Below, piece by piece: positions 14,398 to 17,372 of a stretch of 27,298 nucleotides of DNA; positions within the stretch are counted from its first letter, which is position 1; every line of letters begins with the position of its first letter. Made by a program: the position numbers and the translations under genes. Source of the stretch: Fibrobacteria bacterium (GTDB lineage Bacteria > Fibrobacterota > Fibrobacteria > UBA11236); assembly GCA_043732185.1 (NCBI GenBank), contig JAYTHY010000089.1, forward strand, positions 1-27,298. Reading direction: 5' to 3'. The notes under the pieces are model-generated. The model searched no databases and was not told the origin of the DNA. It worked only from the letters and a program-made list of their open reading frames with translations.

Positions 14398-16002
14398 CTA
14401 GAAATGAAAGGCTGGCATTAGAATCAAGTTCGTAGGATTATAATTTGATTCCCGCCAATTATATTCACTACCGTAATTGATTTCGAACGATAGTCGGTTC
14501 CATATCCAAAAACGTAATCCAACAGTAACGCCTGTTCCACCATCAAAATGCCATTTTGGCGCGTCTCCCCTAATGACGCCCTGGCACGAATTGAGGCTCT
14601 GACTATCCGTACCACATTGACCAGAAAAATATTGATCACCTAGGTCTTGAAAACGATCTAGCTTATGGAAAATCGTGCCTAAACACTCAATATTTTGGGT
14701 TAAAAATTTTCCACTCTGCATGCCCAGTTTTAGCTCTTGGTAGTTCTTACTGTCAAAAAGCCTTCGTTCATGGGTCTTATTCATGGTGTAACTTATAAAT
14801 CCTCCGAAGGCGGGGTGTACCCGGACTCCAACATGCCCGATAAAACTGGTTTGGAAGAAGCTATTGATCCATCCAATACCTAATTCAAATGGAAATTGGG
14901 TTGGCCAGTCCTGTATTTTCCAGGGTAAAGGAATATCATTAGCGGCGTCACGGCCCTTGGCCAAACCCGAAAATTGGAATCCACTCGTTAAATCGCCGGG
15001 TTCGATGGACTTAATTTGCTTGTCTTTTATTTTAGTTTTGAACTGCATGGTCTTTCGCCCTAATTTCTGGAATATCCGATAGGTGCCCGGTGGCAGGGCC
15101 CAGAACGCTTCCTTGCCTTTAGTCTTTTGAAATTCCCCAACTATCTGGGAATAGGAATTGGCAATGAGTATTTCGCCCTCTACCTCTGGTTTAAAAATGA
15201 GTCCGCCGCGTCCGGAATTAAGGTCCGTTAATACAACATCCCCTTCCACATCCAAATTCAGTTGCGCCTTAGCATGCTGCGCGCCGCCTTGGCTTTCTTC
15301 TGTTTCTAACAAGGTTTTTTGATAGGCATATTGATAGGCCTCAAGCAGGCTTACGCGACGATCACCGGAAACATCGCCGGCACCGCGTAGGGCACTGATC
15401 AAATAATGAGTGAAAAACGAGCCTTGCAATTGATCCGATTCTTGGGAACTTTCGTTTTCAGCGCTGGATGCGATTAGGATGGACCCTTGGCTTTTAAGTT
15501 GCTGTTCCAAGACAAAGGGCTGAACCAGACGTGCGCCTTTCAAACGCGTGATAGCACCACTTTGGCAGGCATCCAAAATTCCGATACGGAGCTTGGCTGG
15601 GATCTCATCGATCCTCTCCTTCAGTTCTTTAAGCGTAAATTTTCGGCGACCAAGTTTAAGGTACTCGCCAGTGCCATGGCCGGAGAAATAAAAAATAAAG
15701 ACGACTTCGTCGTTTGGCATGGCTTGCATGCTCCAAGTATGGATTTCTTTAAAGGCATTTTCCAATTCTTCTGGCCGGGGTGATTTCAGCAAGATCACAC
15801 GATCTTCATCCATACCGCCTACTTCCTGGAATAGTTCAGCAATTTTTTGCGCATCCGATTCCGCAAATTGTAGTCTGGGATCGTCGTCAAGCCCTCGATT
15901 ATGGCCGACTACCAGGCCAAGCCGAATGGTCCGCCCCTCAACTGAGAAGAGGAGGAAACAGGATAAACAAATGAAGACGATCCTCCAGATGGAAAATCTC
16001 AT
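14398..16002 (-). CDS. Exported caspase-family (peptidase C14) protease with probable C-terminal beta-barrel
   Basis: 534 aa. Signal peptide, LVVGHN...L.FAESDA, catalytic dyad YFSGHG (H109) and ILDACQSG (C146), GSFFTHYL..ALRG.GD. C-terminal amphipathic strands ending in Phe. Confidence 0.9.
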   Translation of the reverse strand: MRFSIWRIVFICLSCFLLFSVEGRTIRLGLVVGHNRGLDDDPRLQFAESDAQKIAELFQEVGGMDEDRVILLKSPRPEELENAFKEIHTWSMQAMPNDEVVFIFYFSGHGTGEYLKLGRRKFTLKELKERIDEIPAKLRIGILDACQSGAITRLKGARLVQPFVLEQQLKSQGSILIASSAENESSQESDQLQGSFFTHYLISALRGAGDVSGDRRVSLLEAYQYAYQKTLLETEESQGGAQHAKAQLNLDVEGDVVLTDLNSGRGGLIFKPEVEGEILIANSYSQIVGEFQKTKGKEAFWALPPGTYRIFQKLGRKTMQFKTKIKDKQIKSIEPGDLTSGFQFSGLAKGRDAANDIPLPWKIQDWPTQFPFELGIGWINSFFQTSFIGHVGVRVHPAFGGFISYTMNKTHERRLFDSKNYQELKLGMQSGKFLTQNIECLGTIFHKLDRFQDLGDQYFSGQCGTDSQSLNSCQGVIRGDAPKWHFDGGTGVTVGLRFWIWNRLSFEINYGSEYNWRESNYNPTNLILMPAFHF

Positions 16003-16760
16003 ACTTTGCCTTTTTTGTTCAATATAAAGAGGGAAACTTTTTCCCCATTCCGAAGCTGTTTGGACAATCGGGAGCCGATTTCCGAAGGTCGGAAGCCGCT
16101 GGCCTGCAGGGCCTGATGTATTTTCGATTCAATAACCGAATAGGGTATGAATTGCGGGCTCCAGTAGCCAATCATAATCTCAGATAAGGCGCTGGTATCC
16201 AGCTCCAGGGCAAAGTCGAGCGTTTTTTCTTGTCCTGCCAAAAGTGGGGAAGCCTTATCCTGACAGGAAAAACATTCGATTTTACCGCTTTGATCGAGAG
16301 ATAAAAGATGAAGATAGCCCTGCGAAGATGCTGAGTAAATGGCTTGGAGCTTGTCCCCAGGCTGGAAAAAATCTCCAGTCACTGCTTTGCCAATGGTCGC
16401 ACCCCGTTTGAGAAGAAATCCAAGCTTAAAGTTTTCACCCTTTATCCGTGTCGTTTCCGCAATCACGGAAATATCCTTGCGGTTTTGGATTTGTAATAAG
16501 GTAATGATGCCCACGAAGAACATCAAGGAAGCAAAGGCCAGCATGGGTTTGTACCCAAATGAATTCGTAACCCTATCAAGAAAGTTAACCAGTGAATTCT
16601 CGGACCCGGTTTTGTTGGTTTTTTGCGCCGACTTGGCTGCATATTCCAGGGCACGCACCGAGGCCATGACCCGTTGGGTAAATGCTGAATCTACCGAGGG
16701 CGTTTTTTTTCTCTCAGTCAAAAAATCATTCCAGATTTCTTCATCTTTATTGGAATGCAT
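15999..16760 (-). CDS. Putative single-pass anti-sigma factor with extracytoplasmic DUF4384-like domain
   Basis: 253 aa, directly downstream of the ECF sigma. N-terminal P.VDSAFTQRVM anti-sigma-like helix, one TM (MLAFASLMFFVGIITLL), then F.PGDKLQ.......GYL.LLSLD.SG.I, typical of DUF4384-like Ig folds. Confidence 0.7.
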   Translation of the reverse strand: MHSNKDEEIWNDFLTERKKTPSVDSAFTQRVMASVRALEYAAKSAQKTNKTGSENSLVNFLDRVTNSFGYKPMLAFASLMFFVGIITLLQIQNRKDISVIAETTRIKGENFKLGFLLKRGATIGKAVTGDFFQPGDKLQAIYSASSQGYLHLLSLDQSGKIECFSCQDKASPLLAGQEKTLDFALELDTSALSEIMIGYWSPQFIPYSVIESKIHQALQASGFRPSEIGSRLSKQLRNGEKVSLFILNKKGKV

Positions 16761-16763
16761 GGT

Positions 16764-17336
16764 TTATACCTTTCTCGAAAAGAACTGTAATTTCTCTTTT
16801 AGTTTAGTCCGAGCATGATTCACGCGGGAACGGACCGTGCCAGGATTTGATTGCATGATTTCCGCGGCTTCCTCATAAGTAAAACCCTGCACCAAGGTCA
16901 GTTCAAACGCCATTCGATGCTTGATTCCCAAATGGTTGAGGGCATCTTCTAGCATTCTTTTAATCTGATGTCGTTCTGCTTCTCCGATTGAACCTGGATT
17001 TTCAGGTACATCAGCACCTTCTTCTTGGAAAATTTCAAATTTCCTTTTTCGCTTTCGCAAAGCATCCAAACAGGCATTTCTAGCTATCGTGAAAAGCCAA
17101 CTCGAAAATGAAGCGTTGTTCCTTCCCTCATATTCCCTTATCGCTAAAAAAGCCTTCACAAATGTCTCCTGAGCAATATCTTGGGCCGCGTCCCGGTCTT
17201 GAATCATATTCCGTAAGAATCCAAGTAAAGGTCCTTGATAGCGATCGACCAATTCAGAAAAAGCCTCCGAGTCTCCGCCTCGGATACGCTCTATTATTTT
17301 TGCTTCCCACAATGGGTCAACGTCCGGTTTTTGCAT
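16764..17336 (-). CDS. ECF-type RNA polymerase sigma-70 factor
   Basis: 190 aa. GDSEAFSELVDRYQ, AQDIAQETFVKA, FSSWLFTIARN.CLD.LRK, region 4 YEEAAEIM...PGTVRSRVNHAR. Confidence 0.95.
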   Translation of the reverse strand: MQKPDVDPLWEAKIIERIRGGDSEAFSELVDRYQGPLLGFLRNMIQDRDAAQDIAQETFVKAFLAIREYEGRNNASFSSWLFTIARNACLDALRKRKRKFEIFQEEGADVPENPGSIGEAERHQIKRMLEDALNHLGIKHRMAFELTLVQGFTYEEAAEIMQSNPGTVRSRVNHARTKLKEKLQFFSRKV

Positions 17337-17347
17337 ATTACTCGTAA

Positions 17348-17372
17348 GACGGATGGAATATGCAAAAGTTCA
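17348..17372 (-). promoter_or_regulatory. ECF sigma-type promoter, probably autoregulatory
   Basis: Minus strand reads TGAAC-TTTTGCATATTCCATC(16 nt)-CGTC, the canonical AAC-N16-CGT ECF layout, 11 nt before the sigma ATG. Confidence 0.7.

Follow-up and report, generated by a model that had tools for sequence, protein, structure and literature searches.

The window, a stretch of 27,298 nucleotides from a Fibrobacteria bacterium, carries three minus-strand genes in a coupled row. Their products are an ECF sigma factor, a candidate single-pass anti-sigma and an exported protease of the C14 (metacaspase-like) type. The features of the row, in the direction of transcription, are:

17348..17372, minus strand: ECF-type promoter candidate, TGAAC-N16-CGTC, read from the sequence, with the sigma ATG 12 nt downstream
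16764..17336, minus strand: ECF (group 4) sigma-70 factor, 190 aa (Pfam and TIGR02937 matches)
15999..16760, minus strand: single-pass anti-sigma candidate, 253 aa (model and family profile)
16476..16550, minus strand: transmembrane (TM) helix of the anti-sigma candidate, residues 71-95 (model helix and hydrophobic stretch)
16437..16451, minus strand: TRIKG, anti-sigma residues 104-108, in the linker between TM helix and domain; candidate site-1 cleavage or docking motif
16011..16436, minus strand: predicted periplasmic Ig-like beta-sandwich plus two helices, anti-sigma residues 109-250, DUF4384-like (pLDDT ~97)
14398..16002, minus strand: exported caspase-fold protease of family C14, 534 aa, with an outer-membrane barrel as its C-terminal part (Pfam and model)
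15934..16002, minus strand: signal peptide, about residues 1-23 (hydrophobic helix 2-16 in the model, then VEG/R; presumed cleavage position)
15253..15930, minus strand: caspase domain, residues 25-250, with His109 at 15676-15678 and Cys146 at 15565-15567 (fold matches)
15502..15561, minus strand: flexible loop, caspase residues 148-167, candidate self-processing site (pLDDT <50)
15535..15549, minus strand: TRLKG, caspase residues 152-156, six residues past Cys146 of DACQSG
15004..15234, minus strand: beta-sandwich after the caspase domain, residues 257-333 (strands with pLDDT 93-97)
14404..14886, minus strand: predicted OmpA-like outer-membrane beta-barrel of eight strands, residues 373-533, with ...PAFHF at its end (model strands)

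A preliminary description of this DNA had called the three genes tightly coupled, and they are: 3 nt separate the sigma stop codon from the anti-sigma ATG, and the anti-sigma and caspase genes overlap in an ATGA. The promoter that it had proposed at 17348-17372 is indeed readable there as a candidate TGAAC-N16-CGTC, and the two motifs that it had singled out, TRLKG (15535-15549) and TRIKG (16437-16451), lie where it had placed them, the latter "just outside" the TM helix in that it starts 9 residues beyond the modelled end of helix 71-95. The orthologous loci L003, L004, L005 and L006/L023 also have GAAC...CGT[CA] upstream of their sigma genes. A scan of the genome with the promoter motif returned 14 sites, a number not above chance. 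The window's operon holds no third conserved gene; the neighbours differ and belong to other transcription units.

The first protein is an ECF (group 4) sigma-70 factor, made up of the sigma-2 and sigma-4 regions only (Sigma70_r2, PF04542, E 4.3e-20; Sigma70_r4_2, PF08281, E 2.6e-12) and scoring 104.4 bits against the ECF profile TIGR02937, whose cut-off is 42.9. In the model of the second protein (pLDDT 86.6), N-terminal helices (residues 4-48) are followed by the TM helix (71-95), a linker with TRIKG and an Ig-like periplasmic domain (112-249). As modelled, it has the general layout of membrane anti-sigma factors: a gene at +1 of an ECF sigma gene, N-terminal helices, one TM segment and an extracytoplasmic domain. 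It is a candidate for binding and inhibiting the sigma factor. Its family comprises 8318 representatives at E<=0.001, and the sources of some homologues call them "anti-sigma factor RsiW" or "ActD protein". Taking an H-x3-C-x2-C motif or a zf-HC2 (PF13490) match in the N-terminal domain as the mark of zinc-binding (ZAS) anti-sigma factors, we found no PF13490 match in the window protein and did not place it among them; anti-sigmas of its clade have F-T-x-R-V-M at the place of Cys in others. Among 20 scanned relatives, six match zf-HC2 (E 1.8e-05 to 0.0097), and three of these six reach the 22.2-bit cut-off. The periplasmic domain aligned best (VIA-align: Z 9.7, rmsd 3.1, 103 aligned residues) with Ig-like or macroglobulin-like domains. 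Against DUF4384 (PF14326) it scored 17.8 bits (E 0.0037), below the cut-off of 27 and outside the family, so "DUF4384-like", as it had been worded earlier, is apt. Within the same 20 relatives only P0014 (28.3) and P0033 (60.4) pass that cut-off.

The third protein belongs to peptidase family C14 by its profile (Pfam Peptidase_C14, 50.7 bits with a cut-off of 21.4; E 2.5e-13), its caspase-hemoglobinase fold and its His-Cys dyad. H109 and C146 are invariant in the 66 sequences of alignment A3 (66/66), as is D144, two residues ahead of the catalytic Cys. Foldseek matched the model (pLDDT 80.8) to MALT1, caspase-6 and Yca1 (E 4e-08 to 7e-07), and also to the OmpA TM domain. A profile search of the PDB gave metacaspases as the nearest solved relatives by sequence (AtMC4, 6w8s, E 9.3e-08), with the D-A-C-x-S-G signature aligned to D-S-C-H-S-G of AtMC4; a metacaspase-like Arg/Lys specificity and self-cleavage are putative on this indirect basis. 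With 62.8 bits against a cut-off of 140, the protein is related to NCBIfam caspase_w_EACC1 (NF047832) but falls outside it. Its caspase-plus-Ig layout resembles the caspase-Ig3 arrangement of MALT1, which is in the Foldseek list.

On its model, the C-terminus of the caspase falls among OmpA-like eight-stranded barrels (OmpA TM domain 1qjp in Foldseek, E 2.5e-06, TMt 0.71). F or Y is the last residue in 43 of the 71 complete caspase ORFs of the family, and the window caspase ends in F. Signal peptide and barrel would place the caspase in the periplasm, and the barrel strengthens the earlier claim of a "trans-envelope" system, in that the module would span the envelope. The preliminary description had not included this C-terminal OmpA-like barrel.

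Both copies of the T-R-x-K-G motif lie in loops of low confidence (pLDDT <50 or ~53; <50 for anti-sigma residues 98-106) flanked by confident domains, a setting that would suit a linear motif recognised by a partner protein. It had been suggested to check whether R-x-K-G is co-conserved in both proteins across triads, and the answer was positive: R-x-K-G is present in 62/75 neighbouring anti-sigma ORFs, and T-R-x-K-G follows the catalytic Cys in 70/78 caspases. K-G itself is found in 71/75 of these anti-sigmas (the four ORFs without it are truncated), and in alignments A1 and A4 K107 and G108 vary little or not at all. Database representatives of the anti-sigma have K in 146/149, G in 147/149 and R in 123/149, with Lys replaced by Arg in two of the 149. 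In the caspases the Lys is present in 78/78; in alignment A3, K155 is invariant (66/66), and the conservation of T152, R153, G156 and G157 is 90% or higher.

Seen in a single genome, the likeness of the two motifs is not significant, since among 5000 shuffled protein pairs 1366 have a 5-mer in common (I=L). The match goes beyond chance because it is conserved at the family level, not because of this one genome. Taken as the given anti-sigma family motif, [TIV]-R-x-K-G occurs in 30 of the 2039 ORFs of at least 300 aa in this genome, and chance would produce ~0.015 occurrences in a protein of 534 aa and 0.0006 in a loop of 20 aa. The sole profile-profile alignment between the anti-sigma and caspase families pairs these two motifs, and is not significant as homology. 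The motif is absent from two canonical DUF4384 proteins and from the four repeats of P0033, and is thus not a general DUF4384 feature. In the anti-sigmas its spacing from the folded domain is constant but that from the membrane varies (6-45 residues), and fold alignments of the domain begin at residues 106-110, suggesting that K-G may be the first residues of the domain, conserved for structural reasons. Under phylogenetic control, co-variation of the two motifs was not demonstrable: an aromatic residue at the x position gives 1-2 independent contrasts only, and loss of the anti-sigma Arg gives 5-7, with the caspase mostly unchanged. Arg was lost on 7 branches in the anti-sigma and on only 2 in the caspase.

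The two families co-occur strictly. In 80 loci found by the caspase alone, the anti-sigma gene lies directly upstream in 75, from at least eight phyla, and a sigma gene is present in 70. In five distant genomes, 13/13 anti-sigma matches that reach the motif and the domain adjoin 13/13 strong caspase matches, and five matches to the N-terminal part of the anti-sigma only do not adjoin caspases. The window's own genome encodes two caspases of this kind, each with its own anti-sigma. Many paralogous triads are found per genome, and the C-terminal parts of their caspases differ. At 5/80 loci the caspase retains T-R-x-K-G with neither anti-sigma nor sigma adjoining, so that the caspase loop motif is independent of the anti-sigma.

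As for named relatives, 17 proteins called ActD or "ActD-like protein" (NCBI, UniRef) match the anti-sigma family profile (E 4e-29 to 5e-45) and have x-x-[I/T/S/M]-K-G at the corresponding place. By these matches, the Myxococcus proteins that databases name ActD appear to belong to the anti-sigma family, although their paralogy to the window protein is distant. The act locus reportedly times the C-signal in development (Gronewold and Kaiser, 2001). Passages of Asplund-Samuelsson et al. (2012; PMC3501461) report that four M. xanthus metacaspase operons contain sigma-70 genes, and give the same linkage for Anaeromyxobacter, Haliangium, Sorangium, Ralstonia and Fibrobacter; they record the co-occurrence and suggest a link to cell death, and make no reference to an anti-sigma, a motif, a barrel or a mechanism. 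The similar myxobacterial triads that the preliminary description mentioned do exist, and their linkage is published. It knew of no mechanistic description of the sigma/anti-sigma/caspase triad, and our literature search found none, nor any cleavage, binding or expression data on a triad member.

The explanation that we favour, with a probability of roughly 45%, is that the caspase serves the anti-sigma as its dedicated site-1 protease and that the triad forms one envelope-spanning signalling module. The single-pass anti-sigma would bind the ECF sigma factor and hold it at the inner membrane, while the metacaspase-like Cys protease would hang into the periplasm from its OmpA-like barrel, its post-Cys loop bearing T-R-x-K-G-G. 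Upon a presumed envelope signal, the protease would process its own loop after Lys155, a maturation like that of caspases and type II metacaspases, and would then cut the anti-sigma after Lys107. This site-1 cleavage would remove the bulky periplasmic domain, an RseP-type site-2 protease and cytoplasmic proteases would release the sigma factor, and the latter would transcribe a regulon including at least its own operon from TGAAC-N16-CGTC.

We prefer this reading because the genes are linked (75/80 loci, 13/13 pairs, 2/2 in the own genome), because the motifs are conserved in both families without being general to DUF4384, because the His-Cys dyad is invariant and the nearest solved relatives are metacaspases, and because the predicted topology fits, the caspase being exported and the anti-sigma motif periplasmic. 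An RseP-like M50 protease in the genome and the precedent of DdvA, as set out in parts of PMC11506125, add to it. The proteolytic switch of the preliminary description is thus partly supported: motif co-conservation, loop position and topology agree with it, but co-variation could not be demonstrated and the orphan caspases (5/80 loci) keep the motif. The orphans and the co-variation result also speak against a site-1 role of the caspase, as does a perhaps structural K-G. A further point against it is the near-absence of Lys to Arg swaps, which metacaspases that accept Arg or Lys would not demand. Besides, the site would lie ~9 residues from the inner membrane and the protease would be tethered to the outer one, so that its reach would depend on a linker of ~40 residues.

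Several of these points would suit a caspase that is mere regulated cargo or an effector (e.g. a stress-made envelope protease), with the anti-sigma inactivated by another protease or by a ligand on its Ig-like domain, each motif conserved on structural or catalytic grounds of its own, and the motif likeness coincidental. ECF operons often carry their own targets, which is general knowledge and is reflected in genomic-context lists in the part of the PMC7826278 supplement concerned. The orphan caspases that retain the loop motif (5/80 loci), the co-variation that is not demonstrable, the position of K-G right where the folded domain begins and the non-significant match in a single genome point the same way. 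We nevertheless judge it rather unlikely that the caspase is only cargo: the anti-sigma periplasmic domain was found only beside this caspase subfamily (13/13 in five distant genomes and 2/2 in the own), [TIV]R.KG is expected by chance at ~0.015 per 534-aa protein and ~0.0006 in a given 20-aa loop, canonical DUF4384 domains do without the motif, and the many paralogous triads with differing caspase C-termini look like a sensor family, not one effector.

The linkage and motif evidence bears equally on a reversed arrangement, to which we give a low probability. The anti-sigma motif would be a pseudo-substrate in the caspase active site, silencing the protease or shielding the anti-sigma from a general site-1 protease, and a signal separating the two would free both active caspase and sigma. 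RseB protects RseA, and TonB-dependent transducers protect their anti-sigma; both could serve as models. Shielding of an anti-sigma by an outer-membrane partner is described in part of PMC11637429, and the presence of the same motif on the caspase's own loop makes competition conceivable. Substrate and inhibitor are not told apart by the present data, but the small residue after Lys (G in 147/149) would suit a scissile P1' rather than a blocked pseudo-substrate. Clan CD also includes transamidases and sortase-like enzymes, and the Lys is almost never replaced by Arg; K-G might thus serve another chemistry, such as a transpeptidase-like joining of Lys or the new C-terminus to an envelope component, or be the docking site of a third partner (a lipoprotein or peptidoglycan). 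This is very improbable in our view, as we know of no such chemistry in C14 enzymes and the window's operon offers no third conserved gene.

If the caspase does act as site-1 protease, a broader and more doubtful proposition can be made: the triads may be numerous trans-envelope receptors gated by a protease, a class so far unrecognised, in which a caspase relative with Lys specificity and an outer-membrane tether would cut the anti-sigma at the same [T]-R-x-K|G as its self-maturation site. Access to this membrane-proximal site would be set by how wide the envelope is or what state it is in, or by ligands on the variable caspase-to-barrel part, with many paralogous triads reading many signals; the Myxococcus act locus (ActD, timing developmental C-signalling) would be one instance. 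Were this true, it would provide the first defined physiological substrate for bacterial C14 proteases. The conserved motif common to inhibitor and protease resembles a cleavage site and offers a target on which a relative of the caspases in bacteria can be tested.

Type II metacaspases and orthocaspases (AtMC4, MaOC1) mature by self-cleavage after Lys or Arg, and metacaspases prefer Arg or Lys at P1. The window caspase has in common with them the His-Cys dyad, D-x-C-x-S-G and a basic residue in a flexible post-Cys linker; it differs in a candidate site only 9 residues past the Cys, a spacing to which caspase-3 and -7 come closer than metacaspases, and in being predicted to be periplasmic and barrel-anchored. 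With E. coli sigmaE/RseA/DegS/RseP the triad would have a logic in common: a periplasmic site-1 cut near the membrane, a site-2 cut by an M50 protease and release of an ECF sigma factor. DegS is a Ser protease with an inner-membrane anchor and regulation through its PDZ domain, whereas the site-1 protease proposed here is an operon-encoded caspase-fold Cys protease tethered to the outer membrane. The genome encodes an RseP-like M50 protease (216.5 bits), and regulated intramembrane proteolysis of the anti-sigma is a candidate mechanism by this analogy.

Similar in its proposed chemistry is DdvS/DdvA of Myxococcus xanthus, for which the relevant parts of PMC11506125 and PMC6061681 describe an ECF sigma factor on a single-pass anti-sigma and a periplasmic caspase-fold Cys protease. 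There the CHAT protease has been proposed to cut the linker from TM to periplasmic domain before RseP acts (in part of PMC11506125), so that a flexible linker is the proposed site-1 target in both systems; the RseP step was shown, on truncated protein (parts of PMC11506125 and PMC6061681). As these parts have it, TPR-CHAT is fused to the anti-sigma, any action that it has is exerted in trans inside a dimer, and the regulon is a defence island. The triad has instead a separate C14 protein with a predicted outer-membrane anchor, an anti-sigma with an Ig-like domain only, and a motif common to both. DdvS/DdvA had been set apart earlier as a different architecture, and with a 253-aa anti-sigma of one Ig-like domain and the protease in its own gene, the window is not of the DdvA type.

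For the sigma factor itself, the part of the PMC7826278 supplement that covers group ECF25, including SigG/SapG of Nostoc punctiforme, gives a GGAAC / GTC promoter, a single-pass anti-sigma at +1 with a zinc finger and/or DUF4384, and taxa including Fibrobacteres, Deltaproteobacteria, Spirochaetes, Gemmatimonadetes and Acidobacteria; that part makes no mention of a caspase or Peptidase_C14. The window context and TGAAC-N16-CGTC fit this ECF25 description (Casas-Pastor et al., 2021, in part), a fit by description only. Finally, TonB-dependent transducer/FecR/FecI systems, as presented in part of PMC11637429, likewise encode an outer-membrane protein, an inner-membrane anti-sigma and an ECF sigma factor together, and control the anti-sigma by proteolysis, from which the outer-membrane partner protects it. 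Pfam found neither a TonB-dependent receptor nor a FecR domain on the three window proteins, which are not of the FecA/FecR/FecI type: in the triad, the outer-membrane partner is predicted to be the protease itself.

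The three genes of the operon lie on the minus strand and are tightly coupled, with a 3-nt gap between the sigma factor and anti-sigma genes and an ATGA overlap between the anti-sigma and caspase genes. The preliminary description had reported this arrangement together with a motif in two of the products and a promoter, and we found every one of these elements in its place.

Features of the operon in the window
17348-17372, minus strand: promoter candidate TGAAC-N16-CGTC, 12 bases upstream of the sigma ATG
16764-17336, minus strand: ECF sigma factor, 190 aa; Sigma70_r2 E 4.3e-20 and r4_2 E 2.6e-12 (Pfam), TIGR02937 104 bits against a cut-off of 42.9 (NCBIfam)
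15999-16760, minus strand: anti-sigma candidate, 253 aa; sub-threshold DUF4384 match (17.8 bits against 27)
16437-16451, minus strand: TRIKG, residues 104-108 of the anti-sigma candidate, read from the sequence
14398-16002, minus strand: Peptidase_C14 caspase, 534 aa; 50.7 bits against a cut-off of 21.4
15535-15549, minus strand: TRLKG, residues 152-156 of the caspase, six residues beyond Cys146 of DACQSG

No NCBIfam family matched the anti-sigma candidate. As for the surroundings, G+C content is 0.49-0.58 over positions 1-12000 and 0.43-0.49 over 12-23 kb, operon included. A lipocalin gene with a lipoprotein-like N-terminus (13654-14202, plus strand; Lipocalin_2, E 3e-40) is convergent to the caspase gene. 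The stretch 17398-20087 (minus strand), upstream of the operon, holds a gene in two pieces: a 694-aa multi-TM ORF (18003-20087) shares 67 nt with a 223-aa spermidine-synthase-like ORF (17398-18069) that is read in another frame. Because the homologous region is a single open frame in the same-genus genomes G001 and G003 (913 and 899 aa), this split represents a frameshift or an assembly error.

Structure models were obtained for the caspase (66-row alignment, mean pLDDT 80.8) and for the anti-sigma candidate (112 rows, pLDDT 86.6).

Segments of the two models
Caspase N-terminus, minus strand: signal-like helix
Caspase residues 25-250, minus strand: caspase domain
Caspase residues 148-167, minus strand: loop holding TRLKG, pLDDT under 50
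Caspase residues 257-333, minus strand: beta-sandwich
Caspase residues ~340-370, minus strand: low-confidence linker
Caspase residues 373-533, minus strand: eight long strands (barrel)
Anti-sigma residues 4-48, minus strand: N-terminal helices
Anti-sigma residues 71-95, minus strand: TM helix
Anti-sigma residues 98-106, minus strand: segment with pLDDT under 50
Anti-sigma residues 112-249, minus strand: periplasmic domain, pLDDT ~97

For the N-terminal part of the caspase, Foldseek found MALT1 paracaspase, caspase-6 and Yca1, the yeast metacaspase (E 4e-08 to 7e-07); for the C-terminal part it found the transmembrane domain of OmpA (1qjp, E 2.5e-06, TMt 0.71). In a sequence-profile comparison, metacaspases came out as the closest proteins of known structure (AtMC4, E 9.3e-08), with D-S-C-H-S-G opposite D-A-C-x-S-G in the alignment. 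Phe is the last residue of the protein, and F or Y ends 43 of the 71 complete family members. Since an even number of strands puts both ends of the barrel on the periplasmic side, the protease is predicted to hang into the periplasm from an outer-membrane tether. Among long caspases of Fibrobacter and Myxococcota (representatives P0169 and P0201), the part between caspase domain and barrel weakly matches LA_2272 surface repeats and the VC2662 family, which may hint at the make-up of this variable part.

Position, topology and N-terminal helices of the middle protein fit an anti-sigma factor, and we treat it as a candidate. The window protein has no zinc-finger motif; a zf-HC2 match was found in 6/20 family representatives, and some homologues are labelled 'anti-sigma factor RsiW' by JGI. 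Its periplasmic domain is modelled as a generic Ig-like or macroglobulin-like sandwich: Foldseek returned nothing at E≤0.001, and a specific fold relative was dropped because VIA-align gave only generic matches of these kinds (Z up to 9.7; rmsd 3.1 over 103 aligned residues for the best), with alignments beginning at residues 106-110. In the model the TRIKG motif abuts the first strand of this domain. Canonical DUF4384 had no match at E≤1e-5 in 26 relatives, and R-x-K-G is absent ahead of the domain in two canonical DUF4384 proteins of an acidobacterial genome. In the 758-aa representative P0033 the anti-sigma-like N-terminal segment is present twice, together with a single TM helix and four canonical DUF4384 repeats in tandem; R-x-K-G precedes none of these repeats. 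Judged from these proteins, the motif is not simply part of DUF4384. No part of the caspase was accepted as a domain homologue of the anti-sigma, as hhalign yielded a single insignificant match (probability 1.6%) in which only the motifs lined up.

To what extent does this gene order recur? Caspase matches occur in 33/41 related genomes (a tally that counts the unpublished genome G011); many of these hold several, the maximum being 12. The order sigma, anti-sigma, caspase recurs in the 20 loci examined with flanks of 1.5 kb, where an anti-sigma was seen in 15/20 and a sigma factor in 17/20. Scanning species-representative genomes with an alignment of the caspase domain gave at least 600 pattern matches and at least 558 confirmed relatives, of which the best 80 loci were analysed. 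By record titles these 80 come from Fibrobacterota, Acidobacteriota, Latescibacterota, Myxococcota, Gemmatimonadota, Leptospirales, 'Deltaproteobacteria', a gammaproteobacterial MAG and candidate division FCPU426; one of the loci from Fibrobacterota, the group to which the window itself belongs, shows 98% identity (L021). Within these best 80 of at least 558 loci, the caspase is directly preceded by an anti-sigma profile match in 75, with a sigma match ahead of it in 70 and five further loci cut by a contig end. The other five (L046, L063, L081 with two caspases, L097 and L100) are orphans, without anti-sigma or sigma nearby despite the presence of upstream DNA. Pairing was strict in five distant genomes (G041-G045): 13 of their 18 anti-sigma matches reach the motif and domain, and all 13 adjoin the 13 strong caspase matches (E 3e-111 to 3e-58), while the five that cover the N-terminal part only have no adjoining caspase and seven weak caspase matches are unpaired. 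The window's own genome encodes two caspases of this subfamily, each behind an anti-sigma; the second pair (43-2258 of a 4.5-kb contig, C73) carries VRSKG in the anti-sigma and TRFKG in the caspase loop, and its caspase ORF reaches the contig end. The subfamily is strongly expanded in some genomes: G004 has 12 matches, G013 and G019 have seven apiece, and G042, from Myxococcota, has 14; these caspases are ~510 to 915 aa long and differ between caspase domain and barrel. On the anti-sigma side, a profile of 17 sequences run against 1.84 billion cluster representatives matched 8318 at E≤0.001, 5901 at E≤1e-10 and 1131 at E≤1e-30. The triad is a real, widespread and experimentally unstudied module: our literature search found no mechanistic study of it, and bioRxiv supplements and the rest of the PMC7826278 supplement might name the caspase context.

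Within this genome alone, the likeness of TRIKG and TRLKG is not more than chance would give; a 5-mer common to both proteins (I=L) arose in 1366 of 5000 shuffled pairs of the two. The families are another matter. In the first set of related genomes K-G is present in 18/18 aligned anti-sigmas and R-x-K-G in 17/18; K-G stands at the same spacing beyond the catalytic Cys in 20/20 caspases, with Arg ahead of it in 15/20 (19/19 and 15/19 without L020, from an unpublished genome). For the best 80 of at least 558 loci, K-G follows the TM helix in 71 of 75 anti-sigma ORFs and R-x-K-G in 62, the four without K-G all being truncated ORFs; the distance from TM helix to motif ranges from 6 to 45 residues. 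In the same loci, 78/80 caspase ORFs bear the D-[AS]-C-x-S-G signature, and at the motif position these 78 have Lys in every case, followed by Gly in 77, with the full T-R-x-K-G in 70. Across the best 149 of the 8318 anti-sigma representatives the motif column reads K in 146, G in 147 and R in 123, counts that may be slightly biased as the 272-position query profile contained the motif; in this set T, I or V precedes the Arg in 122/149, and most residues at the x position are I, Y, L, T, V or F. His109, Cys146 and Lys155 are invariant in 66/66 caspases, and T152, R153, G156 and G157 are at least 90% conserved. By comparison, [TIV]-R-x-K-G occurs in 30 of this genome's 2039 ORFs of ≥300 aa, i.e. 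0.015 expected per 534 residues and 0.0006 per 20-residue loop. Given this conservation and the low pLDDT at caspase loop 148-167 and anti-sigma residues 98-106, the two motifs combine strong conservation with a place in segments predicted to be flexible.

It had been proposed from the sequence alone that the caspase activates itself at TRLKG, cuts TRIKG and so frees the sigma factor. A first computational test of this idea, co-conservation of the motif in both proteins, gave a positive result; the cleavage itself is something that we infer. We speak of co-conservation at the level of aligned sequences and claim no co-evolution. In a raw table of 88 operon pairs, MRGKG goes with TRGKG and Y/F with F/Y at the variable position. 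As a phylogenetic control we used a FastTree tree of 82 caspase domains with the motif masked. Independent contrasts numbered only 1-2 for the aromatic trait and 5-7 for Arg loss, with the caspase unchanged in most of the latter; Arg loss amounted to 7 changes in the anti-sigma versus 2 in the caspase, mostly not mirrored. With so few contrasts and Arg loss mostly unmirrored, a claim of residue-level co-variation was dropped. A complex prediction for caspase 24-340 and anti-sigma 96-253, made with custom alignments and without controls, gave a score of 0.00 and a mark of 0.32, which speaks neither for nor against binding.

The promoter candidate shows a narrower conservation. The orthologous loci L003, L004, L005 and L006/L023 retain GAAC...CGT[CA] ahead of the sigma gene. 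Among the best 80 of at least 558 loci, AAC-N15-18-CGT was found at -50 to -30 of the sigma gene in 3/70 and anywhere in the scanned stretch in 11/70. Conservation beyond the orthologue clade was dropped on the 3/70 figure, and since most loci lack the motif other clades must use other promoters. In the supplement of PMC7826278, group ECF25 is described with a GGAAC / GTC promoter and single-pass anti-sigmas bearing a zinc finger and/or DUF4384, Fibrobacteres included; the promoter candidate and its context fit this description at the sequence level. Scanning the genome for GAAC[TC]TT-N12-14-CGT[CA] yielded 14 sites against ~25 expected by rough uniform-composition arithmetic. There is no enrichment, so only autoregulation can be proposed, and with the count below this rough expectation no regulon was inferred from the motif scan.

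The model we commit to is that the caspase acts as a dedicated site-1 protease of the anti-sigma. The outer-membrane-tethered, metacaspase-like protease would first cleave its own loop after Lys155 and so mature, and would then cut the anti-sigma after Lys107; the remaining stub would pass to an RseP-like M50 protease, one of which is encoded in this genome, and the sigma factor, once free, would activate its own operon at least. From its sequence, we regard the triad as a candidate case of an ECF sigma factor controlled by proteolysis of its anti-sigma.

Several points count against the site-1 reading. Orphan caspases keep the motif; in the alignments Arg almost never replaces Lys; K-G may belong to the folded domain; and the candidate site lies, in the model, ~9 residues from the inner membrane, leaving a distance to bridge from the predicted outer-membrane tether. 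One main rival holds that the caspase is mere cargo and that the motif likeness reflects coincidence or structural reasons. Family conservation, strict pairing and the low base rate per 20-residue loop make accident unlikely as the source of the two family motifs, an estimate made post hoc with the match already known. Equally among the main rivals, the anti-sigma motif could be a pseudo-substrate or a protection device, or the invariant Lys could serve some other chemistry. If site-1 cleavage were refuted, the strict pairing and the common motif would still need explaining.

Orthocaspases and metacaspases, the bacterial caspase relatives, are widespread and mostly discussed in connection with cell death, and to our knowledge almost no natural substrates are known for them. 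Here the putative substrate comes from the adjacent gene, the putative cleavage site is a five-residue motif that both proteins share across many phyla, and a sigma factor with a candidate promoter of its own offers a simple read-out; the site-1 idea can therefore be put to the test with a few point mutants. It is also a large family, with 8318 anti-sigma cluster representatives (E≤0.001), at least 558 caspase loci in species-representative genomes and many copies in some genomes. If true, the model would extend the ECF repertoire by a site-1 protease of a new kind and by a new route of signalling from the outer to the inner membrane.

The model, if true, may also account for an old developmental locus of Myxococcus. 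Homologues of the anti-sigma in Myxococcus and its kin are labelled 'ActD protein' or 'ActD-like protein' by NCBI and UniRef; 17 such proteins match our anti-sigma family profile (E 4e-29 to 5e-45) and carry the K-G motif. Gronewold and Kaiser are said to have found in 2001 that ActD controls the timing of C-signal.

Sigma-70 genes have been noted in four metacaspase operons of M. xanthus, and the same structure in Anaeromyxobacter, Haliangium, Sorangium, Ralstonia and Fibrobacter (Asplund-Samuelsson et al., 2012; PMC3501461); the portion of that paper available to us gives no mechanism for them. The nearest mechanistic parallel is DdvA of M. xanthus. According to the accessible part of its description (PMC11506125), RseP action was shown on a truncated form of DdvA, and a caspase-fold CHAT domain is fused to the anti-sigma, for which a cut in trans is proposed in the linker between TM helix and domain.
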